Assembly (NCBI GenBank): GCA_963718585.1
Contig: OY970357.1
Coordinates: 990,001 to 1,022,000, forward strand
Source of the DNA: Candidatus Saccharimonadota bacterium
GTDB taxonomy: Bacteria > Patescibacteriota > Patescibacteriia > 2-12-FULL-60-25
Length of the DNA: 32,000 nucleotides
Reading direction: 5' to 3'
A program made the translations under genes and the position numbers. This document shows positions 1-21,645 of the stretch, in pieces. Position 1 is the first letter of the stretch. The number at the start of each line of letters is the position of its first letter. The notes under the pieces were generated by a model. That model was given only the letters and a program-made list of their open reading frames with translations, was not told the DNA's origin and did not search any database.

Positions 1-2391
1 GACCGTGATCGTGCTTACGACGACGGGATTCGTCGGATCCGCGAGATCGACCACAGAAACCGTTCCATCCCCCGAATTCGTGATATATGCATACCGTCCG
101 CTCAAGGCGACTCGGGACGGGGTTGAACCAACAGCTACCGTCGCCGTCAGGACCGGATCCGTCGAGCTCGCGATATCGACCACGGCCAAAGTGCTGGAAC
201 CGCTGTTGACGACATAGGCGTACTCACCGGAGTACGCGACATCCGTCGGAGCCGCGCCGCTCCCGAGGGACAACGTGCCAAGAACGGATGCATCCGTGGG
301 ATCAGAACTCAGAATCATGAATGAATCGGATCCGTAACCCGTGACCAGGAGCTCGGGACCGTCTGCCGCAACCCCACGGGGGATCGTCCCACCACTGAAC
401 GTCGTCGATGACGCGATGAAGGGTGCGCTTGGTTTGGAAATATCGACGACGTTGAGTTTATCACCATCAAGAGTGATATACGCGTACTGCCCCTGGATCG
501 CGACACGTCGAGGATCCGTCATCCCAATGCCCGTAAGCACCGTCGGCGTCGAGGGGTCTGCAAGATCCATCGTTGCGATCGTTACGGCATTTTGGGCGGT
601 GATGACCGCAACGCGCTCCGTGACGGCGATATCCGTGGTGCCGATCGACGAGTAGGTGAATGCCCCGAGCGCCTCCGGCTTCGACGGGTCGGTGATGTCG
701 TAGGTCTGGATCGTATTTGTCGCGGCCAAGTAACCGAACGTTCCTTTCGGGACGAACTTCACTGGAAATGTCGCGGCCGCTGTGGTCGTCACGGTCGTGA
801 ACGATTGTCCCGTCTCCAAGATGTTCTGGACGTTTCCGACGACAGTCAGTTTTGCGGCTGACGACGTCGCTGTGCCGATCACGACACGCGTGTCCGTGTT
901 GTACCCAAAATAAGCGGTCGAGACACCCGTTGTGCCGCCGGACAGGTCGAAGTAGATCGGCGCGCCTGCCGTCGAGGTATCCGCCGCGCCAAGGACGACA
1001 TCCGTGGTCGCCGTCGCATTGTGCACGAAGTCCCCGGACGCATCATATGTCCAATTGAGGTCGAATCCCCCACTTGAGGCCGTGCAGTTCGTCCCGTCCG
1101 CAAGACAGACGAGCTGACCTTGGACCGTCAACGATGAACCCGATGCAGAAGTGAAGGCGAGTGTCGTCGCCGTCGCCTCGGTCGCGGTGAGGAAACTCGA
1201 TGTCAGATTGGTCACGACCCCATTCGTCGCGAACAGGTTCGTCGTTGTTGCAGATGTACCGGTTGCAAAGGTATAGGTCAAAGTCTGAAGATCTGCCGTT
1301 CCGGTCGATGTCAACCGGCTTCCCACAAGGACCCCCCCATATGCGTAGATCAGATCCGTCGTATTGTCTCCATTGTCTGTGATCGTTTGGAGTGTCGCGG
1401 TCGTCGCCGGCGCGCCGCCTGTGATCGCCGTCCCGTTGACGTAGAGATTCGTCGTCGAGACCGTGGTCGCCCCCAACCAACTCGATGTTGCGTTCGTAAA
1501 CACCGCGTTGGTCGATGAGACGGTCGTCGCAATGACGTTCGTCGACGTCACCGTCCCGACATTGAGCCCAAGCCATCGCAAGCTGGCCGAACCGAGCGAA
1601 TAGGTCAGATCCGCCACTGGCAAGACATCCGTGTTGATGTGCCCATTCAGCGCGATCAGATCAGACGCACCGGAACCCAAGGTCGTACTCCCCTGGATAT
1701 CGAGATTTCCGGTAGACGTGACGCTGCCATTCCGGGAAATACTGAACACATTGGTCGCCCCAGCGAATCCTTGAACGAGGAAGTCATTACTGTCCGACGT
1801 CCCATCCGTCTGTACGACGAGCGCGGTCCGGGTCGCGGCCGCGGCATCGGCGGTCGTTTGATGGACCGCAAAGAGGGATCCACCCGCGGACGTGATCGAA
1901 GATGACGCGTATTGGCCCTGCAACTGTTCTGCGTTGAATGCATTTGGGACGGACGAAAGACGCTTTCGGGGCGTCATTTCCGAATCCGAGCCGACGGTCA
2001 CCCCCAGATACAGTCCATCCTGGTTCCAATCAATGTCGAACGCGTTCTGCCCTTGGAAGCTCGTATCCCCAAGGAGGATGGAGAACAAACCACTGGAGAC
2101 ATCGACATTGATCGAGGTCGGAACTGCCGTGGTCCCGGATGCGGTCCAGATCGGCGTTCCCCCGCTCGCCTGTGTATAGACCGAGAATTTGATGGCGTAT
2201 GAGCCATCCGCGACATTTGTTCCTCCGGATGAAAGGAGTCGGCCTTGGTAGTTGAAAAAGTGAGGGATCCCATTAGCCGCTGAAGCAGGCGTTGCCGTGA
2301 TAAGAACGAGGCTCAACAAACACAAAAGTCCATAGCCTAACCTATGTTTGAGATTCCTTAATACCTGTGATGTGGGCAAGGTGTTTTTCAT
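1..2391 (-). CDS. Large secreted repeat protein, 3'-truncated by the window edge. It has a signal peptide, a tail-fibre/adhesin-like N-domain and LVIVD-type beta-propeller repeats.
   Basis: It is absent from the ORF track because it has no stop inside the window. I read plus-strand triplets 1-3, 4-6 ... 2389-2391 and found no TTA/CTA/TCA, giving 797 uninterrupted minus-strand codons from the ATG at 2391-2389. The translation starts MKNTLPTSQVLRNLKHRLGYGLLCLLSLVLITATPASA (signal peptide), then IPHFFNYQGRLLSSGG. Toward position 1 there are repeated units YAYITLDGDKLNVVDISKPSAP, YAYVVNSGSSTLAVVDIASSTDP and YAYITNSGDGTVSVVDLADPTNP, which fit the LVIVD-repeat pattern. Confidence 0.85.
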   Translation of the reverse strand, partial: MKNTLPTSQVLRNLKHRLGYGLLCLLSLVLITATPASAANGIPHFFNYQGRLLSSGGTNVADGSYAIKFSVYTQASGGTPIWTASGTTAVPTSINVDVSSGLFSILLGDTSFQGQNAFDIDWNQDGLYLGVTVGSDSEMTPRKRLSSVPNAFNAEQLQGQYASSSITSAGGSLFAVHQTTADAAAATRTALVVQTDGTSDSNDFLVQGFAGATNVFSISRNGSVTSTGNLDIQGSTTLGSGASDLIALNGHINTDVLPVADLTYSLGSASLRWLGLNVGTVTSTNVIATTVSSTNAVFTNATSSWLGATTVSTTNLYVNGTAITGGAPATTATLQTITDNGDNTTDLIYAYGGVLVGSRLTSTGTADLQTLTYTFATGTSATTTNLFATNGVVTNLTSSFLTATEATATTLAFTSASGSSLTVQGQLVCLADGTNCTASSGGFDLNWTYDASGDFVHNATATTDVVLGAADTSTAGAPIYFDLSGGTTGVSTAYFGYNTDTRVVIGTATSSAAKLTVVGNVQNILETGQSFTTVTTTAAATFPVKFVPKGTFGYLAATNTIQTYDITDPSKPEALGAFTYSSIGTTDIAVTERVAVITAQNAVTIATMDLADPSTPTVLTGIGMTDPRRVAIQGQYAYITLDGDKLNVVDISKPSAPFIASSTTFSGGTIPRGVAADGPELLVTGYGSDSFMILSSDPTDASVLGTLSLGSGAAPTDVAYSGEYAYVVNSGSSTLAVVDIASSTDPVLTATVAVGSTPSRVALSGRYAYITNSGDGTVSVVDLADPTNPVVVSTITV

Positions 2392-2489
2392 GCCTTCATC
2401 ACCACACAAAAGATCATATGTGGTTCTGTATTTGGCGTTTGGCTCTCCGAACGAACAAAGCCCAACGTCACTTCATATGGTACCAGTAA

Positions 2490-2513
2490 CAAAAATTCGC
2501 TCAGTAGAGCGAA
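2490..2513 (-). terminator. Rho-independent terminator downstream of the 1088-aa gene
   Basis: On the minus strand: stem TTCGCTC, loop TACT, stem GAGCGAA, then TTTTTG. In plus coordinates the stems are 2496-2502 and 2507-2513 and the A-run is 2491-2495. Confidence 0.6.
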
Positions 2514-2548
2514 CTTTTATAAATACCGTCCTGTGGAAAAACTGTGTA

Positions 2549-5500
2549 CTAAAGTGGAGTGAGTGAAATATTCTGGTCAACTAAGCCCTCATCTTTGTTG
2601 CTGAGATCGATATCTGGACTCCGGTACGGTTTGTATTGTGCCTTCTGCGCAGTCAGATAATAGACGTTCCGTCGAACGAAGAAGCCGTACTTTCCATTTG
2701 CATCCGTAACCTGTGTCTCCAAAAGCTTGTTGAATTTTTTATCGAAGATGCGCACGATAACTCGATCCAATGGTTTCCGCGTCTTGGCATCGAATGTGAC
2801 ACCCCAGCTCTTCGCCTTTGCGGGCAAAGCCAAACGACGGAAAAGCAGATAGATACCGACTTGTGCCATCACCAAAAGAGCATTCAGAAGCGAAGGACTG
2901 ATGACGAGGACCACCATACCCAGCAAAACCCCGCTGAACGCCACTCCGTGTCGTAACCGCCGTGCGAATTTCTGCCACAATATCTTCCGCGGCGTCTCTT
3001 CTGCCGTCACCGGATCCAGCGGAATGTTCATGGCGATCACTTCACCCTCCGTTCGCTCCATGGGAGCGCCATGATAGAGGTCCGTATAATCAACGTCTTC
3101 CTTATGCCCGGTAAGATAACTCGTTGGGAAGACAAAACCAGGCTTGACGACCTCGAGAAGGTATCGCCCTGCATGAACGACAAACCAGTATCGTCCGAAT
3201 TTATCTGTGACTCGCGTCTGCAGGACGATCCGTGTTTGCGCATCCAGTAAACGAACGATCGCCAGCTTCACCGGCTCTTTTGTCAACGAGTTATAGATCG
3301 TTCCCCACTTCCGCTTACGACGACGCTCAAACAGCAGAAGCGGCTGTGTGAAAAGATACTGGAGATATGCAAGGAGGTTGAAGAGGGAAAGGGATGCCGC
3401 CGCATTGGCAAGAACGGCGATCATGATCAACGGGGCGGCGATGGCATTCGCCGCCTGGACCGCGGGCGATTGAAGCGTTTGACGGATCAGCTGAACGCCA
3501 TAAGAGGTTTGCGAGGCGAGGTTCGTGACAGCTGCGGCTACTCGTTCCGCTAAAGTCGACGTCGCGGTGAGCACTGGCACGACGGGGATCTTGATCAATG
3601 AGACCTGCTGATTGAAAACATTGTCTCCGATCTGGGTGGGCACCGTCACCGCTGTGCGATATCCATCATGTTGTACCTCTATGTAGTAGCGGCCATTCGG
3701 GACCGTAAACCCGTACGCGCCATTCGCGTCTGCCGTTGCACTCCCATATGGGGTCCACACGCCATTCACGTCTCGGTAGAGCTGGATCTGAGCACCTGGG
3801 ACCGTCGTACCCGTCGGACCTGTAAGACCCTCTTCCACCACCGTGCCTGCGGACTTGGCTACGAGCGTATTTGAAACGATCGCCTGCCCCCCACCACTGA
3901 ACTGGACCGTGACGTTCGATGGATAGACCCCCGCAGAAGGGACCACGAAGATCCCACGATAGTCCGTGCCATTCGGTCCAGGCTGAAGGGCATATAGCGA
4001 CCCACCCACATTCAGCGTCATGGACGTCGGTGTCTGCCCGATCCCCGCAAGCGGCACGATCACCTGGATCTCTGATCCAGAGAGAGCACTGATGTTCCCG
4101 TTCACATCAGGCACGAGCTGGATCGACCCGTTGTTCCCGTAGTAGTAGACCGCGACATCCACCGTCACCGTCGAGCCTGCCGGGGTCGGAGTCGGACCGA
4201 CCGGTGGTACCGATGGAGGTGTCGGCGGCTGCGTGGCTGGCGAGGGGGGTGCAGGGGGTGTCGACGTTGGCGTAACGACCGGAGAAACACCGTTCGGCGT
4301 TGCCTGTGCAAGCGCGCCCGATGCGAAGTTACTATTCGTATCATAGGCGTATGCGCCGTAGAGATACGTCACGCCGTTGGTCAAGCCGGTATCCACCGTC
4401 GAGGCGCCTGTCCCATCGTACACAAGGATCCCATCGAATGGTCCGGTCGGGTAACTCCCTGTCTTGCGTAAGATCTTTGTGCCCGCAAAGTCTGCATCCG
4501 GCGGTAAACTCCATGAAAGAGACACGGTGGTATCACCCGGGACCGCCGTCAGATTAGAGACATTCGCCGGCGGCGTCACATCGCCACTGGTCGTGAAGGT
4601 CCCATCAGAGCTGTTCGTCGTATTCCCCGCGACATCAGAAGAACGAACGAAAAAATGATATCCGGTCAAAGGACTTAAGCCGTTCAACTGGACCGCGTGG
4701 GTCGTCACATACCCGGTCGTATTCGCGGTGAAACCGTATGATACGGTCGTCCCATAAAAAACATCAGACGTGGATGGTTCATTCGTCGACCACGTTACGA
4801 GCGCAGACGTCTCTGTGATGTTCGTGACCTGGATGTTCGAGATCACCGGAGGCGTCGTATCCCCAAGCGTCGTAAAGGTCTGGTCGGACGAGACCGCTGT
4901 CAAAGATGTCGAATCCGTTGACTGGACATAGAAATGATAGACCATCGACGGCGTAAGACCGGTCAGGTCAAGCGCGTGATTCACGACGAGCGTTCCATCA
5001 GACACCGTCCCGCTCGCATAGCTCGTCGTCTGTCCGTATGAAACGGAGGAATTCGCCGGCTTATCCGTGACCCACGTGATGTGCGCGGAATTCGATGTGA
5101 TGTTCGTGACCTGGATGTTCGAGATCACGGGAGGAGATGAACCTCCCGTACCGCCGCCCGTGCTCCCTCCGCACGTCGTACACGGTGGGGTGGTCGTCGC
5201 CGATGGAACGACGGCGGAAACGGTGACGGAATCATTGTCGATGATCGCGATGCCTATTGTCGACGTATCTCCGAACGTCCCACCGATCGTCTCATATGCC
5301 GGACCAGCGGTACCCGGGTTGACCATCTGATGAGAGCCCCCGGCATTCAGACCGATCCGCACCGTGATGCGATCATTTGAAGGGATCGAACCGGGTGCAC
5401 TATCCGTCGGTGCGGTAAGCGTGACCGTCGTTCCACTGATCCCGACACCCCAGGTACCCGCGGCCGGGACGGCCGCGACGGAGGTCGTATGTTCGTTTCC

Positions 5501-5815
5501 AGTCACACCCCACAAAAGACTGACGTCGCTCGACGTCAGTGTGGACAGATCAAATCCCGAAAAGGTCAATACGATCGTGTCCGACGATGCATCGATCCCG
5601 GAAGGTGTTTTAAAAAGGAGTTCGTGGTTTGCCGCGGTACTGACCTTCAAACGGCTCAACGTATCGCTTGCAGGTGTTGCGAGCGCCGCAGAGATGCTCC
5701 GAGCGATCAACGCAAAAACAACGATACTCAAGATCGTCCCTGCGATTCGAATACGTGGGCGCTTCACGAAAAAATAACGGCCCCTGACTTCAGGAGCCGC
5801 CACGCCCCCTGACAC
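2549..5815 (-). CDS. Large surface/membrane protein with an N-terminal signal anchor, three FN3-like modules, a Pro-rich linker, and three CarboxypepD_reg-like beta-sandwich domains interleaved with TM helices
   Basis: 1088-aa ORF. Signal anchor: ILSIVVFALIARSISAALA. FN3-like modules: PPVISNIQVTNITSNSAHITWVTD..., PPVISNIQVTNITETSALVTWSTN..., PPANVSNLTAVPGDTTVSLSWSLPP.... Pro-rich linker: TPTSTPPAPPSPATQPPTPPSVPPVGPTPTP. CarboxypepD_reg-like segments: GAQIQLYRDVNGVWTPYGSATADANGAYGFTVPNGRYYIEV, AIVRLLDAQTRIVLQTRVTDKFGRYWFVVHAGRYLLEV and VIVRIFDKKFNKLLETQVTDANGKYGFFVRRNVYYLTA. These are separated by hydrophobic stretches such as APLIMIAVLANAAASLSLFNLLAYL and VAFSGVLLGMVVLVISPSLLNALLVMAQVGIYLLF. 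The start codon is uncertain. Confidence 0.85.
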   Translation of the reverse strand: MSGGVAAPEVRGRYFFVKRPRIRIAGTILSIVVFALIARSISAALATPASDTLSRLKVSTAANHELLFKTPSGIDASSDTIVLTFSGFDLSTLTSSDVSLLWGVTGNEHTTSVAAVPAAGTWGVGISGTTVTLTAPTDSAPGSIPSNDRITVRIGLNAGGSHQMVNPGTAGPAYETIGGTFGDTSTIGIAIIDNDSVTVSAVVPSATTTPPCTTCGGSTGGGTGGSSPPVISNIQVTNITSNSAHITWVTDKPANSSVSYGQTTSYASGTVSDGTLVVNHALDLTGLTPSMVYHFYVQSTDSTSLTAVSSDQTFTTLGDTTPPVISNIQVTNITETSALVTWSTNEPSTSDVFYGTTVSYGFTANTTGYVTTHAVQLNGLSPLTGYHFFVRSSDVAGNTTNSSDGTFTTSGDVTPPANVSNLTAVPGDTTVSLSWSLPPDADFAGTKILRKTGSYPTGPFDGILVYDGTGASTVDTGLTNGVTYLYGAYAYDTNSNFASGALAQATPNGVSPVVTPTSTPPAPPSPATQPPTPPSVPPVGPTPTPAGSTVTVDVAVYYYGNNGSIQLVPDVNGNISALSGSEIQVIVPLAGIGQTPTSMTLNVGGSLYALQPGPNGTDYRGIFVVPSAGVYPSNVTVQFSGGGQAIVSNTLVAKSAGTVVEEGLTGPTGTTVPGAQIQLYRDVNGVWTPYGSATADANGAYGFTVPNGRYYIEVQHDGYRTAVTVPTQIGDNVFNQQVSLIKIPVVPVLTATSTLAERVAAAVTNLASQTSYGVQLIRQTLQSPAVQAANAIAAPLIMIAVLANAAASLSLFNLLAYLQYLFTQPLLLFERRRKRKWGTIYNSLTKEPVKLAIVRLLDAQTRIVLQTRVTDKFGRYWFVVHAGRYLLEVVKPGFVFPTSYLTGHKEDVDYTDLYHGAPMERTEGEVIAMNIPLDPVTAEETPRKILWQKFARRLRHGVAFSGVLLGMVVLVISPSLLNALLVMAQVGIYLLFRRLALPAKAKSWGVTFDAKTRKPLDRVIVRIFDKKFNKLLETQVTDANGKYGFFVRRNVYYLTAQKAQYKPYRSPDIDLSNKDEGLVDQNISLTPL

Positions 5816-5843
5816 ACGTCAGGGGGACAAACGGACCTTGAGG

Positions 5844-6920
5844 TCACTTCTTTGATTCTTCTTTTTTCTTTGCTTTACTGACTGCACCCTTGATGACCAT
5901 CGCATTATACCCCTTGATCAAGAGAAGGAGGAGAATGAATGCCGCGAGGATGAGAAGGAAGAGCCTCCACGGAAAGATCCAGAACGAAACCGTCGCATTC
6001 AAGGGAGCGTGCGCGCTCCCATACGTCCCTTCAAGTGTCGCTGTATATTTCCCGATCCCGAAGCCACTCCACTCTGCAGCCAATTGGTCAAAGAATCCTC
6101 CTGACTTTGCATACGAGTTCCCCCATTCTGTACGGACACGGCGAATGCTGTTCGGGAGGACACGGCTCCCCTGAGGATTCGCCGACACTTCACCGACCGT
6201 ACTCCCGAACATATTTTTGATGACCACTTTCCCTCCAAGCGCGAAATGGACGCTCCCTTCATTTTGAATACGCGTCTCAAACAATGCCGGAAGATGGTCG
6301 ATCTCGGAAACAGGCGTCTCATGCTCCGGGTCAGCCGCACTCATCACGCTGAATGATTCAACGGTCGCCTGCTCATGAATGTCACCATTGACCGTGACCA
6401 GCAGCAATACACCCGTCTTAGCCCCAACGCCGACGGCCGTAGCCCCTTGTTCCGATGGCGGAATGGTCGAGAAGAACACGGCGGCATAGTGACCGCCTGG
6501 TTCGGCATCTTTCGGAAGAGAGATCGCAAAAGCGAAATCTCTCGACTCCCCTGCCTTGAGCGTCACCGATGGTTGATCAAGAGCGACCCATGAGACCAAG
6601 CCGCTCGTATCCGTCTCCGGCATGAAGCGCTGTTGCCCCTCTTCTCCATATGGGACGAAATTTTGGACCGTTGCGTAATAGGTCTGTTCCCCATTCGAGT
6701 CATTCGTCAGGTGTAAGACCTCTTGCGCCCTACCGCCTGGATCAAGACGCTCCTCAAGGAGAACTGGTGAGACCGCAAATGCATGTGCGGCCAAGGGGAA
6801 AAGAAGCGGACTCGCAAAAAGGAACAGAACGGCGATACGACGTCGGAGTTCGGACATATATGGAGGTGAACGAATCAATTCTGCAGTTCTGACGCCGGAA
6901 GACCCGGCGTCAGTCAGCAA
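5844..6920 (-). CDS. Secreted cell-surface protein resembling DUF916/DUF3324 (CscA-like), with a C-terminal TM anchor and basic tail
   Basis: 358-aa ORF. The likely true start is the internal ATG at 6857, giving MSELRRRIAVLFLFASPLLFPLAAHA as a signal peptide. The body is FAVSPVLLEERLDPGGRAQEVLHLTNDSNGEQTYYATVQNF...VSWVALDQPSVTLKAGESRDFAFAISLPKDAEPGGHYAAVFFS. The C-terminus is WRLFLLILAAFILLLLLIKG followed by KAKKKEESKK. The family assignment is from recalled pattern similarity, not from a search. Confidence 0.8.
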   Translation of the reverse strand: MLTDAGSSGVRTAELIRSPPYMSELRRRIAVLFLFASPLLFPLAAHAFAVSPVLLEERLDPGGRAQEVLHLTNDSNGEQTYYATVQNFVPYGEEGQQRFMPETDTSGLVSWVALDQPSVTLKAGESRDFAFAISLPKDAEPGGHYAAVFFSTIPPSEQGATAVGVGAKTGVLLLVTVNGDIHEQATVESFSVMSAADPEHETPVSEIDHLPALFETRIQNEGSVHFALGGKVVIKNMFGSTVGEVSANPQGSRVLPNSIRRVRTEWGNSYAKSGGFFDQLAAEWSGFGIGKYTATLEGTYGSAHAPLNATVSFWIFPWRLFLLILAAFILLLLLIKGYNAMVIKGAVSKAKKKEESKK

Positions 6921-6926
6921 GATCGA

Positions 6927-8006
6927 CTAGAAGGAGGCCGTGACCGTATAGGTCACTGTCTGCTGGTAGTTACCTGCAGGAGTACTTGCACTCATAGCTG
7001 CCGCGTGTTCGACAAGTGTCGTCGCAGTGGTCGATGGGGCTGCACCCGCCGTGAACGCACCTCCGTAGGAGATGAAGTTCTGCGCCGTCGATGTCGGGAC
7101 CGGCGATGAGTCCACATCGAACGTGTACCCAACCGGCGAATCTTCAACGACCGGCTGGTCGAAGGCAGAGGTATCCGTAGTCGAACGTCCGCCCTGTGTC
7201 GCTCCAGTCAGTGTCTGGATCCCATAGGATTCCGAACCTGAGCTAAAGGCGGTGTCATTCGTGATGTCCGTCATGGTTGCACTCCCCGAACCCAGGTCGT
7301 GATCTGCGAGGATCTGGGCCTGGAAACCATTCGCGGCATTCGTCGCGATGCGCAATCGATACTGACAGGTGCTCACAGACGAGAGAGAAAGGGTCCCCAG
7401 GTCACACGAGTTGGTGTTCGACGTGTCCGCAGCGTTGCGGATGACGAATGAAAGCGTGGCCGGAACGTTTGCCGTCACATTCACCTGGTTGCCACCGTTC
7501 GCATAGAACAGCGCAGCGCCGAAGTCCGCCGGGTTGGAGGTGAAGACGGAGAACGAGTAGTTGGTCGACGTCGTACCGTTGAAAGTGAACCCCAACGGGA
7601 CCGAGTAGGTCGTTGCGGTATTATCCGTCGTGGTCGCCACGGTGAAGGTAATGTCGAACGTGCTACCCGTGGAGCTTGCGGTGTATTGGGTATCCGTTCC
7701 ACCAGGACCATCGATAGGTCCGGTAACGCCATCAAGATTGAAGTCGGATGAACCCGTCACATAGTAATCCGTGAGCGGAGTGAGACCGCTATCAAGACCA
7801 GCAGCGACGCTGATCGTGATCGTGGTACCCGTCGCATAGGTCGTCCCTGCGGCCTTTGTCCAACTTAACGTAACGGATTGCGGGGAGGTCGAGCTCGACG
7901 AGGGCGTGAGCGTGACCGTCACACCCTCTGCTCCGACCGGCATGACGGCAAATGCCGTGCCGAACAGCAGCGCGATGCTGGCGATCGATGAAATGAACTT
8001 TCTCAT
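6927..8006 (-). CDS. Secreted Thr/Ser-rich surface protein, WxL-like paralog A
   Basis: 359-aa ORF with signal peptide MRKFISSIASIALLFGTAFAVMPVGA. It has low-complexity T/S/G-rich beta-type sequence. The C-terminus STPAGNYQQTVTYTVTASF is shared with the next gene. Confidence 0.8.
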   Translation of the reverse strand: MRKFISSIASIALLFGTAFAVMPVGAEGVTVTLTPSSSSTSPQSVTLSWTKAAGTTYATGTTITISVAAGLDSGLTPLTDYYVTGSSDFNLDGVTGPIDGPGGTDTQYTASSTGSTFDITFTVATTTDNTATTYSVPLGFTFNGTTSTNYSFSVFTSNPADFGAALFYANGGNQVNVTANVPATLSFVIRNAADTSNTNSCDLGTLSLSSVSTCQYRLRIATNAANGFQAQILADHDLGSGSATMTDITNDTAFSSGSESYGIQTLTGATQGGRSTTDTSAFDQPVVEDSPVGYTFDVDSSPVPTSTAQNFISYGGAFTAGAAPSTTATTLVEHAAAMSASTPAGNYQQTVTYTVTASF

Positions 8007-8164
8007 AAAAATATGATCGATGATGTGTTATTTTGCGTGTTATTTTATTTCATGACCACGGCCCTGCATTCCGCGATCGTCGAGCCCGGACTTCGAAGAG
8101 CTTCTTGCTCTTTGATCGAAGAACGGCGAACGGACACATTCAATGTCCGATCGTCGTGACTCGA

Positions 8165-9085
8165 TCAGTAATTGGCTGTCAAAGTGTAAAAGACCGTCTG
8201 ACCGTAATTACCTGCTGGCGTAGAAACCGTCACTGACGCTTTATACACGAGCGCTACGCCTTCGTTTCCACTCGTTGATGATGCGGAGCTTTGTATCGTA
8301 TGTACACTTGTCGAGAACCCAAAGTCCGTACCTGCACCGACCGCCTGATCACCGATGACACTAGCTCCGTACTCTTCTGAACCGATCGTCACAGACCCAT
8401 CCGTGACGTTCGTAATGGAGTTTGATCCATCTCGAAAGTCACCATCGTCTGAAACGTCAACAGTATACCCGTTTTGTGCATTCGATGTCACTCTGGTACC
8501 CGTCAAGGAGGACTTCCCTGTACTTGGACTCAATGTGCCAAGTTCCGCAGAAGCACCATTCATGCGGTAAACAGAGTCATTTCCACCACTCGGGACCGCA
8601 CTTAATGAACTCGGTTCCCCTTGCCAGTTATCCACAGTCAAGAGCGTCCCAACGATGTCCGTGATCTTTCCAAATGCGACTTTTTCATTTAACCCAACAT
8701 CCTCAACAACACCCACCAGATCACCGATGGCATACCCAGAAGCTGAGGAAACGGTCACGGTTTTTGCAGATGCATCAAACGCAGAATACGAGACCTGAGT
8801 CGTATTTTCCTGCGTACCGATCTGAAACGATAGATAGGTAAGATCCTGATCCCCCGTTCTATAGCCGGCACTGACCGTATAGTTTGTACTTGATGAAAAA
8901 CCCGTTGCCTGCTCCCCGACCGTATCGCGAAGCAGATAGTTTGTAGACGTCGCAACATCAACCCCTCCTGAATTTACAGAATCCCAATTGATCTGATAAT
9001 TCGAGCTGCCCATAGCCCAAACATGGCCCGATATCAAAACAAGGGCTATCGACAAGCAAGAAGCCAAAATAAAGATCCTTTTCAT
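8165..9085 (-). CDS. Secreted surface protein, WxL-like paralog B
   Basis: The ORF extends to 9124, but that upstream part overlaps the -35 box of a near-consensus promoter. The ATG at 9085 gives MKRIFILASCLSIALVLISGHVWA as a signal peptide. An S(S/T)NY motif recurs three times near the N-terminus (SSNYQINW, STNYLLRD, STNYTVSAGY). The C-terminus is STPAGNYGQTVFYTLTANY. Confidence 0.8.
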   Translation of the reverse strand: MKRIFILASCLSIALVLISGHVWAMGSSNYQINWDSVNSGGVDVATSTNYLLRDTVGEQATGFSSSTNYTVSAGYRTGDQDLTYLSFQIGTQENTTQVSYSAFDASAKTVTVSSASGYAIGDLVGVVEDVGLNEKVAFGKITDIVGTLLTVDNWQGEPSSLSAVPSGGNDSVYRMNGASAELGTLSPSTGKSSLTGTRVTSNAQNGYTVDVSDDGDFRDGSNSITNVTDGSVTIGSEEYGASVIGDQAVGAGTDFGFSTSVHTIQSSASSTSGNEGVALVYKASVTVSTPAGNYGQTVFYTLTANY

Positions 9086-9095
9086 CTGTATTTGA

Positions 9096-9124
9096 ATTAT
9101 ATAACAAATTGGACACTGTTTCAA
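9096..9124 (-). promoter_or_regulatory. Near-consensus sigma70-type promoter of the surface-protein gene cluster
   Basis: Minus strand: TTGAAA (9124-9119), a 17-nt spacer, then TATAAT (9101-9096). The TATAAT ends 10 nt before the ATG at 9085, so the leader would be only a few nt. No SD is present. Confidence 0.6.
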
Positions 9125-9236
9125 AGCTCAATATAGCCAATCATTAAGCTTCGTAAAATATATATTTATGATTCATGAGCTTGTGAGACCACTGTACTTA
9201 CAATTTGTTCAAGTTTAATAACAGTTGAATCACAAT

Positions 9237-9252
9237 TGTTTCACATGAAACA
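9237..9252. promoter_or_regulatory. Palindrome copy 1, candidate operator
   Basis: TGTTTCACATGAAACA. The two arms TGTTTCA/TGAAACA are perfect; the centre is CA rather than CG. Confidence 0.55.
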
Positions 9253-9337
9253 TTTTGCATAAATTAAACATCTGACAAAATAGATACCAAACGTGAATAC
9301 ACTCAAGGAAAGATACAAATCGAAAAATTATCAAAAA

Positions 9338-9353
9338 TGTTTCATGTGAAACA
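9338..9353. promoter_or_regulatory. Palindrome copy 2, candidate operator
   Basis: TGTTTCATGTGAAACA, with the same arms and centre TG. Confidence 0.55.
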
Positions 9354-9440
9354 CTTGGTTTATTCTAAGCAGGGAATTATATCTATGCTCAATAATCAAT
9401 AATGTGTTTCGATCATTAATACTAGATTATTTCGTTTTCA

Positions 9441-9458
9441 ATGTTTCACGTGAAACAT
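9441..9458. promoter_or_regulatory. Palindrome copy 3, candidate operator
   Basis: ATGTTTCACGTGAAACAT, a perfect 18-bp palindrome with a CACGTG core. Confidence 0.6.
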
Positions 9459-9494
9459 TTTGAATACAATCAATTAAAGTATTTTTACATCCAA

Positions 9495-9510
9495 TGTTTC
9501 ACGTGAAACA
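9495..9510. promoter_or_regulatory. Palindrome copy 4, candidate operator
   Basis: TGTTTCACGTGAAACA, a perfect 16-bp palindrome. Confidence 0.6.
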
Positions 9511-9530
9511 CTGAGAATTTATATTTTTGA

Positions 9531-9562
9531 TAAAAACAAAAACAACGGATTTCACCGTTGTT
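9531..9562 (-). terminator. Rho-independent terminator after tRNA-Ala
   Basis: Minus strand: AACAACGG, loop TGAAAT, CCGTTGTT, then TTTGTTTTT. Plus-strand stems are 9541-9548 and 9555-9562. Confidence 0.7.
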
Positions 9563-9568
9563 ATTGTT

Positions 9569-9645
9569 TGGTGGACCGAGAGGGATTCGAACCCTCGACC
9601 TCTGCAATGCGAATGCAGCGCTCTAGCCAACTGAGCTACCGGCCC
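9569..9645 (-). tRNA. tRNA-Ala (anticodon CGC), CCA encoded
   Basis: The reverse complement is GGGCCGGTAGCTCAGTTGGCTAGAGCGCTGCATTCGCATTGCAGAGGTCGAGGGTTCGAATCCCTCTCGGTCCACCA. It folds as a cloverleaf with the G3:U70 alanine identity pair, anticodon loop TTCGCAT and T-loop TTCGAAT. Confidence 0.93.
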
Positions 9646-9817
9646 ATGAATTCTTCATCTTTTAAATCTATGTACCTATCTCATTTGAAAGGAGCCGGCG
9701 AAAGTCACGATCCGTATACTTTTGTCAGATATATTTTCAATGAGAGTTATCAAATGCAAAGGTCAATCGTATATTAGTTCAAATGATCATCAAGGCAACA
9801 ATGAAAGAAGAGAGAAA

Positions 9818-9859
9818 CTAGAAGCTAGAAGCTGGAAGCTAGAAGCTAGAAGCTAGAAT
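9818..9859. repeat. Heptanucleotide tandem repeat (CTAGAAG) x6
   Basis: The units are CTAGAAG CTAGAAG CTGGAAG CTAGAAG CTAGAAG CTAGAAT. The array is flanked by direct copies of AAATGATCA at 9781-9789 and 9868-9876. The frame read from the first unit (9818) reaches a TAG stop after 12 codons. Confidence 0.9.
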
Positions 9860-9912
9860 GACGATCTAAATGATCACGACTGCACCATAGAATATTTTCG
9901 AGTCTTCTCATG

Positions 9913-9930
9913 ATGTTTCACGTGAAACAT
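9913..9930. promoter_or_regulatory. Palindrome copy 5, candidate operator
   Basis: ATGTTTCACGTGAAACAT, a perfect 18-bp palindrome lying between tRNA-Arg and tRNA-Ala. Confidence 0.6.
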
Positions 9931-9963
9931 CAAGATGAGATCAGTCGTTGAATGCACCTGGCC

Positions 9964-9988
9964 GAAGATCTACTCTTGTAGGATCTTC
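9964..9988 (-). other. Stable hairpin immediately 3' of tRNA-Arg (processing or termination structure)
   Basis: GAAGATCTAC, loop TCTT, GTAGGATCTTC: 10 bp with one bulged G. No T-run follows on the minus strand. Confidence 0.35.
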
Positions 9989-9992
9989 AGCT

Positions 9993-10066
9993 TGGTGCCT
10001 CCAGGTGGACTCGAACCACCATCTAGGGCTTAGGAGTCCCTCGTTCTTCCTTTGAACTATGGAGAC
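9993..10066 (-). tRNA. tRNA-Arg (anticodon CCU), CCA encoded
   Basis: The reverse complement is GTCTCCATAGTTCAAAGGAAGAACGAGGGACTCCTAAGCCCTAGATGGTGGTTCGAGTCCACCTGGAGGCACCA. The anticodon loop is CTCCTAA. Overall it resembles the E. coli argW-type tRNA as I recall it. Confidence 0.9.
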
Positions 10067-10192
10067 ATGCGTCGTAAAATATTACGACCGTACTTCACCC
10101 TTTCCGTTTCTTCGCTTGTCAAACAGCTATTTAAGGTGCGAGCAGTGTACGAAACTATTTTTCTACCGTCAATCGAGAGAACCCCAATGTGC

Positions 10193-10221
10193 TTGACGAA
10201 ACTCCGTGAAAGACCTATATT
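10193..10221 (+). promoter_or_regulatory. Sigma70-type promoter of rpsT
   Basis: TTGACG (10193-10198), a 17-nt spacer, then TATATT (10216-10221). The ATG is at 10234, so the leader is very short and has no SD. Confidence 0.55.
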
Positions 10222-10233
10222 CTGGCGACAGAT

Positions 10234-10491
10234 ATGCCTAATAAGAAAGCCTCGATCAAGGACCTGCGTCAAAATCACAAACGCGCCACGCATAATGCGC
10301 GGATCAAACGCAATGTGAAATTCTTGACCAAACAGTCCAAGGATCTGATCACAGCTGGAAAGAAAGAAGAGGCGAAGAAATCCGTCATTGCGCTGCAACA
10401 GGCGATGGACAAGGCGGCGAAGGTCGGCGTCATCTCACGAAACCGAGCGCGCCGAAAGAAATCATCCTTCATGTCCTCACTTACGAAGTGA
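10234..10491 (+). CDS. rpsT: 30S ribosomal protein S20
   Basis: 85-aa basic protein MPNKKASIKDLRQNHKRATHNARIKRNVKFLTKQ...VISRNRARRKKS, the typical S20 pattern. Confidence 0.9.
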   Translation: MPNKKASIKDLRQNHKRATHNARIKRNVKFLTKQSKDLITAGKKEEAKKSVIALQQAMDKAAKVGVISRNRARRKKSSFMSSLTK

Positions 10492-16981: not shown

Positions 16982-19843
16982 TTGAACATGCCCATCAAAC
17001 ACCTGACCCCTCATGTAAACCCTTCCCCGGCAGGGACCGGGCGTCAGGCAAAAAAGCGGAAAGAACGGATCCGAAAGTGGGTGATCACGACCATCGCAGT
17101 CCTGATCGGCCTCGGATTGCTCGGCGTCCTCGCATTGAGCATCGCATTGGCGTGGATCTCACGCAGTTTGCCGGATCCGGACACGCTCATCACGCGATCT
17201 GTTCCCCTGACAACGCGGATCTACGACCGGACCGGGACCCATGTCCTCTATGAGATCCACGGGGATGAGAATCGAAGCCTGGTGAAGATCACCGATCTTC
17301 CTTCATATGTCCCACATGCCACGGTGGCGATCGAGGACAAGACTTTTTACGAACACCATGGCGTCAGTTGGCAGGGCCTTATTCGCGCGTTCGTGAGCAG
17401 CGTCCTCGAAGGGAAGCGCATTGGAGGGACTTCCACGCTCACACAACAGCTTGTGAAGAACGCCATCCTCACCAACGAACGGACCATCACACGAAAACTG
17501 AAAGAGATCCTGCTCGCCCTTCAGCTTGAACGTGTCTTCACCAAAGACCAGATCCTCCAACTCTATCTGAACGAGATCCCATATGGATCGACCATGTATG
17601 GGATCGAGTCCGCGGCCAAAGGCTATTTTGGAAAATCAGCGAAGGACCTCACCCTCGATGAGGCGGCGCTCCTCGCATCGATCCCACAAGCTCCCGACCT
17701 CTACAATCCCTACGGGACGGGGTTGCACGGGGACAATCGCGATCTCCTCGTCCAACGCCAACATTATGTCCTCGATCAAATGGCCGAGCAGGGATACATC
17801 ACCAAAGACCAGGCAGACGCAGCCAAGAAGGTCGATACATTGAAAAAGCTCGTGCCGAAACAGGTCGGGAATATCAGTGCGCCACACTTTGTGATGTACG
17901 TACGATCACTCTTGGAGAACGAATACAGCCAACAAACGGTAGAGACCGGCGGGCTCAACGTGATCACCACCTTGGATTGGGACAAACAACAGATCGCGGA
18001 AGATGAGGTCAAAAAAGGCGTGGATGCGCGTGGAGAAAAATATAACTTCACGAACGCGGCCATGATCGCGATCGATCCGAAGACCGGACAGATCCTTTCC
18101 ATGGTGGGGTCCAAAGACTTCTTTGACAACGAACACGACGGGCAAGTGAACGTGGTCTTAAGTCCGCGCCAACCTGGATCTTCCTTCAAACCCATCGTGT
18201 ATGCCGCGGGCTTCATCAAGGGCTACACGCCGGATACCACTCTCTGGGACGTGAACACGGTCTTCAAGACCGATATCAAGGACTACCAGCCGTACGACTA
18301 CGATCTGAAAGAGCGCGGTCCGGTCACGGTCCGTCAGGCTCTGCAGGGATCCCTGAACATCCCGGCTGTGAAAATGCTCTACCTCGTGGGCGTGGGACGT
18401 GTTCTCGATTTTGCCGAGCAGCTTGGATATTCGACATTCGCGGACCGGAGTCGGTTCGGTCTTTCCCTCGTGCTCGGCGGAGGTGAAGTGAAGCTCTTGG
18501 AGCACGCCAATGCCTATGCCGCGTTCGCGAACAATGGCGTCCAATATCCGACCTCGGTCATCCTGAAAGTGACCGATGCGGATGGGAAGACGCTCGAGGA
18601 GTGGAAACAACCGGATGGGAAACAAGTGATGGACCCGGCGATCGCAGAACGAGTGTCGAACGTCTTGTCTGACAACAATGCGCGCGCCTACGTCTTTGGC
18701 CTTCACAGCGCACTGACGCTACCGGGACGACCGGCTGCCGCAAAGACCGGAACGACCAACGACTTCCACGACGCGTGGACGCTCGGCTACACCCCATCAC
18801 TGGTCGCCGGCGTCTGGGTCGGAAACAATGACAACGCGCAGATGAAACGCGGAGCTGACGGCTCTGTCATCGCCGCGCCCATCTGGCAAGGATTCATGAC
18901 GCGCGCGCTTGAAGGCACGGCCGCCGAATCCTTCACCCCGCCGCCGCCGGATCCGGTGACAAAACCCGTCCTCCTCGGTCAGGCGACGGATGTCACGCTC
19001 AAGATCGACAAAGCGACCGGCAAACTGGCGACCGACCTCACCCCACCCGACCTGGTCGAGGAGCGAACATACCACCAAGCGCACAACATCCTCTACTACG
19101 TGGACAAAGATGACCCGCGCGGACCACAGCCCACAGACCCCACGCAAGATCCGCAATATGCGAACTGGGAAAACGCCGTGCAGAACTGGGTCACGAAAAA
19201 CAATTGGAACACTACATCGACACCCCCGACTGAAACGGACGACGTACATACATCCGCGAACCAACCACAGGTCATCATCACCTCGCCGAATACGAATACC
19301 ATCATATCGACACGGAACACGTCCGTCAGTGCGACGGTGAATGCCCCGCGTCGTATCCTACGAGCAGAGGTCTGGAGCGAGGGGATCCTCATCGGTCGAA
19401 CGACTGCTCCACCATGGACCGTACCGGTCACGTTCCCAAATGCGATCGGAAAAGGTTTCCACGACCTCGAGGTCCGCGCCTTTGACGATGTGGGCAATAT
19501 CGGGACCGCAACGGTGACCGTCAATCTGACGGCAGACCCATCCACCTACGATATCTCCATCACCTCGCCATCATCGGGGACACAGCTCAGCGCATCCGAT
19601 TTCCCGGTCCCGGTCACGATCACGGCGAACGACATCAACGGTGCGAAGAAGATCGACCTCTACCTTCAATCACCGGATGGAACGACCCGTCTCATGGCCT
19701 CGGATATCACCCCCACGCAGAACTCCGTCCAGATGGACTGGACATACGATCCAGGCCCAGGGGACTACACCCTGTTCCCCGTCCTGATCGATGCAAACGG
19801 GAATTCCCAACCCGGAGAACGCACCCCGGTCACGATCCAATAA
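16982..19843 (+). CDS. mrcA: Class A penicillin-binding protein (GT51 glycosyltransferase plus transpeptidase) with a C-terminal Ig-like extension
   Basis: N-terminal TM helix. GT51 motifs: EDKTFYEHHGV, GGSTLTQQLVKN, RKLKE. Transpeptidase motifs: SSFKP, SLN, KTGTT. The ~300 C-terminal residues include two ~95-aa beta-rich repeats. Confidence 0.93.
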   Translation: MNMPIKHLTPHVNPSPAGTGRQAKKRKERIRKWVITTIAVLIGLGLLGVLALSIALAWISRSLPDPDTLITRSVPLTTRIYDRTGTHVLYEIHGDENRSLVKITDLPSYVPHATVAIEDKTFYEHHGVSWQGLIRAFVSSVLEGKRIGGTSTLTQQLVKNAILTNERTITRKLKEILLALQLERVFTKDQILQLYLNEIPYGSTMYGIESAAKGYFGKSAKDLTLDEAALLASIPQAPDLYNPYGTGLHGDNRDLLVQRQHYVLDQMAEQGYITKDQADAAKKVDTLKKLVPKQVGNISAPHFVMYVRSLLENEYSQQTVETGGLNVITTLDWDKQQIAEDEVKKGVDARGEKYNFTNAAMIAIDPKTGQILSMVGSKDFFDNEHDGQVNVVLSPRQPGSSFKPIVYAAGFIKGYTPDTTLWDVNTVFKTDIKDYQPYDYDLKERGPVTVRQALQGSLNIPAVKMLYLVGVGRVLDFAEQLGYSTFADRSRFGLSLVLGGGEVKLLEHANAYAAFANNGVQYPTSVILKVTDADGKTLEEWKQPDGKQVMDPAIAERVSNVLSDNNARAYVFGLHSALTLPGRPAAAKTGTTNDFHDAWTLGYTPSLVAGVWVGNNDNAQMKRGADGSVIAAPIWQGFMTRALEGTAAESFTPPPPDPVTKPVLLGQATDVTLKIDKATGKLATDLTPPDLVEERTYHQAHNILYYVDKDDPRGPQPTDPTQDPQYANWENAVQNWVTKNNWNTTSTPPTETDDVHTSANQPQVIITSPNTNTIISTRNTSVSATVNAPRRILRAEVWSEGILIGRTTAPPWTVPVTFPNAIGKGFHDLEVRAFDDVGNIGTATVTVNLTADPSTYDISITSPSSGTQLSASDFPVPVTITANDINGAKKIDLYLQSPDGTTRLMASDITPTQNSVQMDWTYDPGPGDYTLFPVLIDANGNSQPGERTPVTIQ

Positions 19844-20130: not shown

Positions 20131-20221
20131 GGTGGATAACAAAGACATCATTGTGTATGCTTCACATCATTATCCACGTTTTATCAACATGTTTGACTTT
20201 TCACTTTCCGACTGTTGATAT
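20131..20221. promoter_or_regulatory. DnaA-box cluster and putative dnaA promoter
   Basis: Boxes with one mismatch to TTATCCACA: GGTGGATAA (20131-20139, reverse), TTATCCACG (20170-20178), TTATCAACA (20181-20189). A weaker box is TGTTGATA (20213-20220). Possible promoter: TTGACT (20193-20198), 17 nt, TGATAT (20216-20221). Confidence 0.55.
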
Positions 20222-20250
20222 CTACATCGAACATTCCTCTCGCACCTCCT

Positions 20251-21645
20251 ATGGATACAAACGAAATCTGGCGCGCCTCACTTGGAGAGCTTGAATTGAC
20301 ACTCTCCAAGGCCAACTTCACCACGTGGTTCAAAAACACGTTCATCTCATCATATGACGGGACGCGCGTCGTGATTTCTGTTCCGAACACTTTCACGAAA
20401 GCATGGCTTGAGAAGAAATATCATGACGCGATCGTCCACGCTCTGCGGAACGTGACCCAAGCGAACATCCGGGATGTCACGTACCGCGTCGAAGTGCGAA
20501 ACACGACGCCGCTCCCGCAGTTCGCGGATCAGATCGAGCCCGATCGCGTTGAAGAGGATTTTCGCATGTCTGCACCGGCGTCGAGTGCATCATCATCTAC
20601 CCCACCATCAGACGTCGGACTCAATCCCCGATACACCTTCAACTCCTTTGTCGTCGGCAAGGCGAATGAACTCGCACATGCCGCAGCCATGGCCGTAGCG
20701 GCAAAGCCCGGTGACGCCTACAATCCGCTCTTCATCTATGGCGGCTCGGGTCTCGGCAAGACCCACCTGCTACAGGCGATCGGTCATCATGTCATCGCCT
20801 CACGCCCGGATGCCAAGATCCTGTATGTGACCTGTGAGCGATTCACGAACGATTTCATCCAGTCGGTCCGCGGGGGCCGAGCGAAAGATTTCAAAGACCT
20901 TTACCGCAACGTCGACGTCCTCCTCATTGATGACGTGCAATTCATCACCGGTAAAGAAAGTACTCAGGAGGAATTCTTTCATACCTTCAACGCCCTCCAT
21001 CAAGCCAACAAGCAGATCATCCTGACAAGCGACCGCTCACCGAAAGATATCCAAGGCCTCGAATCCCGACTTCTGACCCGGTTCGAATGGGGGATGATCG
21101 CGGACGTGAGCAGTCCTGACTTTGAGACGCGGATCGCGATCCTTGATGCCAAGGCGCGAGAAAAACACGTCCAACTCCATCCGGAGATCCTCCGATACAT
21201 CGCCGGGACGGTCCAATTGAACGTCCGCGAACTTGAAGGGGCATTGAACAAGATCATTGCCTATCATCAGTTCAAAAACGTCTCTCCGACCTTGGAATCC
21301 GTCCAAACCCTCCTGCAGAGCTTTGTTCCTAACGCTCCGAAACGGACGATCACGCCACGCCGCCTCATGGAGATCGTGGTCGAATATTATGATCTCCCCA
21401 TGGAAGATCTAATGGGCAAAAGTCGTGAACAACGCTTCGCCTTCCCCCGACAGGTCGCGATGTATCTCATGCGCGAGGAAGCGAAGTGCTCCTTCCCAGC
21501 CATCGGGAACAACGTCGGCGGCCGTGACCATACAACGGCCATGCATGCCTGCAGTAAGATCGCTCAACTCCTGAAAGACGACGATAAACTTCGTCATGAC
21601 ATCTCGCTCATCCGTGAAAAACTCTACAGTGGATCCTCTGGATAA
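20251..21645 (+). CDS. dnaA: Chromosomal replication initiator DnaA
   Basis: [27 protein letters not shown]. Walker A is [11 protein letters not shown], Walker B is LLIDDVQF, and the C-terminal DNA-binding signature is [12 protein letters not shown]. The ORF track starts at 20215; ATG 20251 is preferred. Confidence 0.95.

Follow-up and report, generated by a model that had tools for sequence, protein, structure and literature searches.

What kind of surface structure is encoded by the five consecutive minus-strand genes at positions 1 to 9124 of this window? The window, the whole stretch of DNA analyzed here, comprises 32,000 nucleotides of contig OY970357.1 (positions 990,001 to 1,022,000), and its initial annotation had read the five genes as an undescribed surface or attachment apparatus with WxL- and DUF916-like components. 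All five open reading frames (ORFs) are present, namely T (306 amino acids (aa), 8165..9085, with the frame open to 9124), P (359 aa, 6927..8006), C (358 aa, 5844..6920), M (1088 aa, 2549..5815) and L (1..2391), the last encoding the N-terminal 797 aa of a giant putative LVIVD adhesin that is cut by the window edge. Each of the proteins opens with a hydrophobic signal-like segment; signal and transmembrane (TM) segments were called with a Kyte-Doolittle hydropathy scan, not with SignalP. Gene L, which had been described as invisible in the ORF track, is real, with an open frame of 797 codons, and is missing from the track because the ORF tool omits frames running off the source. As databases hold 108 homologues of P and 271 of C, the cluster represents real genes and not chance ORFs.

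In our assessment, the locus probably encodes a divergent subfamily of the 'Pam'-type pilus of candidate phyla radiation (CPR) bacteria, an usher-less, chaperone-assisted donor-strand pilus in which T would be the tip-type subunit, P the major pilin, C the membrane-anchored chaperone and M the base or anchor subunit. The apparatus is consequently not undescribed, as it matches the Pam pilus system (bioRxiv 10.64898/2026.03.03.709456; NCBIfam NF058579 and NF058581); judged by sequence, it is a variant of this known system, in a subfamily outside the curated Pam models. The product is most likely a thin adhesive surface filament of an ultra-small CPR bacterium. The CPR host that the annotation had surmised agrees with the homologues found, most of the named ones being labelled Patescibacteria, Uhrbacteria or Kerfeldbacteria, and by these sequences the lineage is Uhrbacteria-like Patescibacteria.

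The pilins of the Pam system, PamA and PamB, were identified by cryo-electron microscopy (cryo-EM) of filaments of Ca. Mycosynbacter amalyticus and consist of an N-terminal domain, a linker and a C-terminal domain (bioRxiv 10.64898/2026.03.03.709456). Also encoded in the operon are the tip protein PamT, which lacks the linker; PamC and PamD, two PapD-like chaperones that both carry a TM helix at the C-terminus; and PamR, which combines two FN3 domains and a C-terminal TM helix with a strand at its N-terminus, for which a role in capping and anchoring the fibre was proposed. It was argued that no trans-envelope machine is needed (bioRxiv 10.64898/2026.03.03.709456). The NCBIfam models CPR_pilus_PamT (NF058579) and CPR_Pam_pilin_C (NF058581) derive from that preprint.

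Neither T nor P has a match in Pfam. P residues 197-359 matched CPR_Pam_pilin_C with an E-value of 3.5e-11 and 43.4 bits, in an alignment that spans the whole model (positions 2-148 of 148). T gave two matches, residues 4-119 to CPR_pilus_PamT (E 2e-14, 53.6 bits) and residues 176-306 to CPR_Pam_pilin_C (E 5.7e-7, 29.7 bits). Although these matches are significant, neither P nor T reached the curated Pam_pilin_C cut-off of 55 bits, and the PamT equivalog cut-off lies at 240 bits. The model was also matched by 52 of the 56 aligned pilin relatives (best E 1.6e-13); the C-terminal domain thus falls into the same hidden Markov model (HMM) family as that of the Pam pilins and is continuous with pilins that pass the cut-off. 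T and P are, as had been noted, paralogous and rich in threonine and serine: their C-terminal halves share 31% identity over 181 aa (E 3e-12), Ser+Thr make up 26% and 31% of the two proteins, and their C-terminal ends read STPAGNYGQTVFYTLTANY and STPAGNYQQTVTYTVTASF.

In P, a signal peptide is followed by a beta-sandwich as the N-terminal domain, a linker and a candidate C-terminal acceptor domain, which is the layout of the Pam pilins, and the protein shares with them a pair of cysteines (Cys201-Cys214), invariant in the pilin family alignment. In the AlphaFold2 (AF2) monomer, with a mean predicted local distance difference test (pLDDT) score of 88.6, two beta domains are joined by the linker-bearing segment, and residues 170-184 are assigned no secondary structure. 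Within this segment the pattern N173-x-V175-x-V177-x-A179 is invariant or nearly so across the family. By analogy with the cryo-EM structures of PamA and PamB, residues 172-182 (NQVNVTANVP, 7461..7493, minus strand) are a candidate donor strand, picked out by their conservation and by motif counts: V.V.A.[VIL] was found in 27 of 35 pilins and 17 of 29 M orthologues, in none of 37 T orthologues, in 7 of 97 chaperones and in 17 of 295 unrelated ORFs. T has a signal peptide, the PamT-like N-terminal region and a candidate C-terminal Pam-pilin acceptor domain without the linker motif; like the Pam operon, the locus therefore has a tip subunit lacking a linker and no usher, usher families being absent from the Pfam and NCBIfam matches of all five proteins.

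An exhaustive profile search at E <= 1e-3 returned 1151 representative clusters of the pilin family, and the 108 homologues are nearly all unnamed or labelled Patescibacteria or Uhrbacteria; as for Pam, the family is found almost only in Patescibacteria-labelled records. Many members are 850-1570 aa long and carry the whole pilin module at the C-terminus, preceded by FG-GAP, DUF5122 or NHL beta-propellers, FN3 arrays (six FN3 domains), or MAM domains (for example P0290, P0298, P0301, P0306, P0325, P0326 and P0414). These long proteins look like adhesin-pilin fusions, which fits the fibre model, since fibre-borne adhesins would be expected. The propeller-pilin fusions further suggest that giant propeller adhesins such as the product of gene L may be pilus cargo. 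The LVIVD repeats described in L were readily recovered with Pfam (E 2.6e-20), and NCBIfam added Bdello_MAT_N (E 0.0015) and a yvtn repeat; the N-terminus resembles phage or Bdellovibrio fibre proteins, orthologues reach 3777 aa, and a PDB search with the protein returned nothing.

In C, a signal peptide precedes two Ig-like domains, and the protein ends in a TM helix (approximately residues 318-340) and a basic, Lys-rich tail. The DUF916/DUF3324-like layout that had been proposed for this protein was substantiated by family-level Pfam matches, a PDB profile match, profile-profile comparison and structure search, which together identify it as a remote WxLIP homologue with a C-terminal TM helix. 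On its own, C scored below the cut-off of 27.3 bits for the Pfam family WxLIP_PGBD (DUF916, PF06030; E 0.056, 13.9 bits); the family was matched by 34 of 59 chaperone relatives (best E 2.9e-7), and several homologues are already annotated as DUF916 proteins. A search of the PDB with the chaperone family profile gave EfmWxLIP1 (9i25, 9i1y) as the only significant match (E 5e-4). An hhalign comparison of the family with four Firmicute WxLIPs, taken from plasmids, yielded a probability of 97.0% and an E-value of 1.2e-10 over 225 columns covering both domains. The AF2 model of C (pLDDT 91.4, with low confidence for residues 152-168) contains a pair of beta-sandwich domains followed by a long helix at the C-terminus; its best Foldseek match was the Enterococcus faecium WxLIP 9i1y (E 1.1e-10), followed by the chaperones CfaA, CsuC and Caf1M (E about 2.7e-10 to 3e-7, probability 1.0), with low TM-scores of 0.3-0.56 for these chaperones. 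C is thus both WxLIP-like and PapD-like, its WxLIP homology being remote only.

A scan of the chaperone family with NCBIfam found no model of a Pam chaperone. The connection to Pam was made through gene neighbourhoods: in several loci, including L046, L041 (Ca. Microgenomatus auricola), L055 and L072, a pilin gene stands directly upstream of a chaperone gene of the same family, with E-values of 1e-101 to 1e-117 to the HMM of the window chaperone family, and the adjoining pilins pass the Pam_pilin_C cut-off of 55, with scores of 172, 145, 67, 65 and 58 bits. As chaperones of one family adjoin pilins that pass the curated cut-off, the family of C is the Pam chaperone family, and since this family is homologous to WxLIP, so are the Pam chaperones. 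The preprint calls PamC and PamD PapD-like and mentions neither WxL nor DUF916 (bioRxiv 10.64898/2026.03.03.709456), and no paper in the literature searched ties DUF916 to PapD, to chaperone-usher systems or to CPR bacteria. The homology between Pam chaperones and WxLIP, absent from the preprint and from the other literature searched, is the new part of this work.

The FN3, prealbumin-like and multi-TM layout that had been assigned to M was likewise recovered, with Pfam matches to fn3 and to three SdrD_B (prealbumin-like) stretches. From the N-terminus, M comprises a signal sequence, a pilin-like domain with the linker motif and an array of three FN3 domains, then a P/T-rich linker that leads to Ig and prealbumin-like domains, and finally three TM segments (further ones at about 788-818 and 954-997) together with two prealbumin-like domains that are probably cytoplasmic. 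The motif, VTVSAVVP at residues 197-204, is followed by a Pro/Gly-rich linker and then the FN3 array, and forms part of a candidate donor strand at residues ~195-204 (DSVTVSAVVP, 5204..5233, minus strand), proposed from the motif and from the alignment to the pilin linker; at the aligned position, V.A.V is conserved in at least 80% of M orthologues. While BLASTP of the M N-terminus against the pilin gave nothing, profile-profile comparison detected the shared region: hhalign aligned the end of the pilin N-terminal domain and the linker with the M N-terminus at E 4.2e-5 and a score of 35 (reversed control 12). The next gene behind the chaperone gene in locus L046 specifies a protein of 299 aa that has the layout of PamR, namely a signal peptide, EVDIEALVPAPP as its strand, FN3 domains and a hydrophobic region at the C-terminus, and this protein aligns with the FN3 region of M at 8e-24. 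From these comparisons we read M as an enlarged analogue of PamR, a membrane-bound FN3 anchor with an N-terminal strand of the donor type.

M nevertheless exceeds a tether of the PamR type by far, and the fibre could be right while M serves as an usher- or polymerase-like assembly platform that recruits chaperone-subunit complexes and couples, through its cytoplasmic domains, to the cell interior. Its three TM segments and two predicted cytoplasmic domains go well beyond the needs of such a tether, and its gene is kept beside that of the chaperone even in distant relatives. We consider this unlikely, as the pilin-type linker motif and the partial pilin-like N-terminal domain in front of the FN3 array reproduce the layout of PamR, Pfam found no usher-like beta-barrel or pore domain in M, and for Pam pili no need for a trans-envelope machine is seen (bioRxiv 10.64898/2026.03.03.709456). 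In residues ~790-1088 (window 2549-3450), the last two SdrD_B/CarboxypepD_reg-like domains each follow a TM segment and a basic cluster and are paralogous to each other. The positive-inside rule predicts both to be cytoplasmic, an odd site for the prealbumin-like fold and one for which the anchor model does not account.

With the chaperone a true WxLIP homologue and a WxLIP as its best structural match, the locus might alternatively encode a complex of the WxL/Csc type that forms no filament, with the small proteins bound non-covalently to the cell wall, stabilized 1:1 by the WxLIP-like protein and displaying adhesins. WxL/Csc clusters of Lactobacillales and Bacillales encode small and large WxL proteins, a WxLIP (DUF916-DUF3324-TM) and an LPXTG protein (PMC1534035, PMC9772566, PMC10599100). 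The locus resembles them in the chaperone, homologous to WxLIP over both domains with the same C-terminal TM helix (PDB 9i1y, 9i25), in the small partner proteins encoded beside it, and in the large members of the wider pilin family, whose N-terminal adhesin and C-terminal partner module parallel the 'large WxL' proteins. In the WxL/Csc system, AF2 predicts a WxLIP strand completing the WxL sandwich, and polymerization is unreported (PMC10599100), the WxL proteins being described as wall-bound platforms (PMC10599100, PMC9772566).

The initial annotation had further likened the terminal strand of T and P to that of WxL domains. At the level of motifs, this resemblance stood: D-x-R-G-T-x-A-G-W-x-L of WxL proteins (PMC9772566) compares with R-x-x-A-T-N-A-x-N-G-[FY]-x-[AV] of the pilins (for example GTNAGWSL and ATNAANGF), and Y-x-T-T-[LI]-T-W-x-L-x-x-x-P with Y-x-Q-T-V-x-Y-T-[VL]-T-A-x-[FY] (YTTTLTWNL and YQQTVTYTV), both pairs in the same order. 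At the level of significance it did not. The Pfam model WxL (PF13731) matched neither the window proteins nor any of the 56 small-protein relatives; the W.L motif is absent from T and P; hhalign of the small-protein family against WxL, full-length and trimmed, gave a probability of 0.2% and a score of 13.5 (reversed controls 9-10), in an alignment that picks exactly the first motif pair; and reciprocal HMM searches between the small-protein family and WxL proteins were not significant. With Pfam, hhalign with its reversed controls and HMM cross-searches all non-significant, the assignment of T and P to the WxL proteins was set aside as unproven. DUF916 similarity and a conserved neighbourhood (see below) were found, and significant WxL similarity was not.

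These results also speak against the non-filamentous complex, together with the absence of an LPXTG motif from all five proteins, the match of the small proteins to the C-terminal domain of pilins seen in cryo-EM filaments, and the linker motif, whose presence in P and M and absence from T fits a polar polymer. The host, moreover, belongs to the CPR and not to the Firmicutes (Bacilli), and the partners of the chaperone belong to the Pam pilin family with its linker motif. We therefore regard a WxL/Csc-type complex as improbable, somewhat more so than the platform role of M. A deep homology between WxL domains and pilins is nonetheless possible from these sequences, and attractive because the chaperone is homologous to WxLIP. 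Taken further, Pam pili and Firmicute WxL/Csc clusters could be two branches of one ancient usher-less, single-membrane system, with homologous Pam pilin C-terminal and WxL domains, in which a membrane-anchored PapD-like protein (WxLIP, PamC/D or the 358-aa protein) completes incomplete Ig-like domains and hands them over. To this idea, which leans on YxxxVTYxV versus YxxxLTWxL and TNAxNG[FY] versus GTxAGW, we give somewhat less than an even chance. If true, WxL proteins might also be assembled, even polymerized, by strand exchange.

For the comparison of neighbourhoods, species genomes of GTDB were scanned with the chaperone profile, which identified 169 relatives, and 79 loci were fetched. 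The gene order, which had been put forward for checking, proved to be kept: T-P-C-M recurs in about 30 loci of related species, with chaperone identities of 41-55% and T as the first gene of the cluster. By our reading of the locus maps, the region behind M is visible in 26 loci, of which about 20 have L in that place; in six loci, dnaN-dnaA stand directly after M and L is absent. Pilin and chaperone genes are neighbours here, as in most of the 79 loci, and M comes next after the chaperone in the majority. In distant relatives, such as Kerfeldbacteria, the order is P-C or P-C-C-M, and two chaperone paralogues or duplicated P-C pairs are common. Two tandem chaperone paralogues (~300-311 and ~331-358 aa), recalling PamC and PamD, sit between the pilin gene and a gene for a membrane protein of ~770-980 aa in loci L049, L054, L058, L059, L062, L069, L070, L074 and L080, and pilin-chaperone pairs are duplicated in L055, L072, L073 and L078. 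Some cluster-bearing contigs (L004, L009, L015, L016, L033 and others) are titled 'uncultured Gammaproteobacteria bacterium' (binchicken metagenome-assembled genomes) and others Methylomirabilis or Pirellulales; these titles look like placeholders or binning errors.

That the five genes encode unrelated exported surface proteins (S-layer or cell-wall proteins, adhesins) held together by origin-proximal synteny, with no joint assembly, is very improbable: polA, rpsT, the parS cluster and the dnaA/dnaN region are indeed all syntenic in close relatives, and terminator-like hairpins lie between C, M and L, but pilins and chaperones adjoin each other in distant classes with different flanks, often as duplicated pairs, and the component families match an experimentally established system.

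For the Pam-type pilus, the analyses above directly support the family assignments, the fold of the chaperone and its WxLIP homology, the membrane segments, the synteny and the way in which the linker motif is distributed; from these we infer that a filament forms, in which order it is assembled, and which roles M and L play. Donor-strand insertion, an acceptor groove and the sequence of assembly steps are proposed here by likeness to the Pam pilins. All five products would be exported by Sec. C would reside on the outer face of the cell membrane, held by its C-terminal TM helix, and would capture subunits by completing their incomplete C-terminal Ig-like domain. T would start the fibre as its tip, a role proposed because it has the acceptor domain and lacks a donor strand. 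P subunits would then be added singly, the inter-domain linker (NxVxVxAxVP) of each inserting into the acceptor domain of the preceding subunit, until M, which has the linker motif and lacks the acceptor domain and is for this reason taken as cap and anchor, would end growth and tie the fibre to the membrane via its FN3 stalk and three TM segments. The giant LVIVD propeller fibre encoded by L would act as a co-located adhesin.

Several observations weigh against this reading. All window proteins remain under the curated NCBIfam cut-offs (43.4 and 29.7 versus 55 bits, 53.6 versus 240), Foldseek of the full-length pilin model returned generic tandem-Ig matches only (adhesins, integrins), the pilin family profile found nothing in the PDB, where sequence searches with T and P also gave nothing useful, and a filament is yet to be seen in this lineage. 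The linker motif is short and present in 6% of unrelated ORFs, and strong terminator-like hairpins lie inside the cluster. The parts list differs as well: one chaperone and one major pilin are encoded here, compared with two chaperones and three pilins (PamA/B/E) in the Pam operon, and the anchor greatly exceeds PamR in size, with 1088 aa and, besides its pilin-like N-terminal domain, three FN3 domains and three TM segments where PamR has two FN3 domains and a single TM helix. Unlike the Pam operon, the cluster is followed by the gene of a giant LVIVD protein and has parS sites, tRNA genes, rpsT and polA as neighbours, no ATP synthase, CorB or MFS gene having been identified among the annotated ORFs of the window, and its lineage is Uhrbacteria-like instead of Saccharimonadia or Microgenomatia. 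What the two systems share are the pilin features described above, a two-Ig-domain chaperone anchored by a C-terminal TM helix, and the membrane-bound FN3 anchor.

With the classical chaperone-usher pili (Pap/Fim, CFA/I with CfaA, Csu with CsuC, and Caf1M), the locus shares the PapD-like chaperone fold and, presumably, donor-strand complementation and exchange between incomplete Ig-like subunits. It differs from them in having neither an outer membrane nor an usher to work with, in a chaperone that is anchored in the membrane and not soluble in the periplasm, and in a candidate donor strand that is an internal inter-domain linker instead of an N-terminal extension.

Among surface filaments, Pam pili alone have so far been reported solely from CPR bacteria, and they are thought to mediate contact with host cells. 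With 1151 pilin clusters, and the chaperone in at least 169 species genomes, the system extends well past the classes of its first report, here with an altered parts list in which a single chaperone is combined with a giant anchor, polytopic in the membrane, and a giant propeller adhesin. This variant escapes the curated models, which leaves its genes annotated as hypothetical at present. The WxLIP homology ties the CPR system to a widespread and poorly understood surface system of Firmicutes, and the same donor-strand mechanism is now testable in both.

For three of the genes, alternative starts were considered. For T, ATG 9085 (306 aa) is favoured over TTG 9124, because the latter overlaps the -35 hexamer and orthologues are 302-313 aa long. 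C likely starts at ATG 6857, as its database version P0109 has 337 aa, and M at GTG 5767, as its orthologues lack the first 16 residues.

The initial annotation had placed all five genes behind one promoter in an AT-rich leader. A promoter-like site, TTGAAA-17-TATAAT, is indeed present on the minus strand at 9096..9124, called from its match to the consensus (11/12 positions, the best in 1-10300), and its flanks have 28-35% GC, compared with 55% for the genes; ATG 9085 follows only 10 nt past the -10 hexamer, which makes for a very short leader. The stretch is, however, a parS cluster, and a single transcript is doubtful. Two tandem GC-rich hairpins followed by a U-run lie between the C and M genes (5762..5830, minus strand, -40.6 kcal/mol, z -6.8), with a terminator-like site also listed at 5803-5774 within this region, and appear terminator- or attenuator-like. 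After the M stop, a hairpin with A-tract and U-tract flanks (2485..2530, minus strand, -18.4 kcal/mol, z -5.7) looks like a two-way terminator. Because of these hairpins after the C and M genes, the five genes probably do not form one simple transcript, and the hairpins suggest graded expression rather than a uniform operon; attenuation behind the C gene would be in keeping with a large excess of pilins over anchors.

Upstream of the cluster, TGTTTCAYRTGAAACA occurs in five copies (9237, 9338, 9442, 9495 and 9914; span 9237-9929), with none expected. It was considered as an array of pilus-regulating operators and rejected as such, the sequence being the canonical parS site, bound by ParB, and dnaA/dnaN lying 10 kb away. 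Of 155 parS copies in relatives, 147 fall into the 2.5 kb preceding the T gene; 29 of 37 loci have at least two in this interval, and a single locus can have as many as 10. In L002-L034, L039 and L068, they stand 0.1-1.7 kb upstream of T. Genes for tRNA-Ala and tRNA-Arg share the AT-rich stretch with parS, and between them lies a 7-bp tandem repeat, AGAAGCT, in 6.6 copies (9813-9858). The window further contains dnaA (20215-21645) and dnaN (21868-23001), and its cumulative GC skew has a minimum near 21-22 kb, which together place the pilus cluster ~10-20 kb from the replication origin. With the parS cluster, the nearby dnaA/dnaN and the skew minimum, what had been taken for an AT-rich leader is the centromere region beside the origin. 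Among the other products of the window are a LysM-M23 peptidase (522 aa, 26359-27927) and a class A penicillin-binding protein (953 aa, 16982-19843) that contains Big_7 Ig domains, from which it follows that the organism builds and remodels peptidoglycan, a layer that the fibre has to traverse.

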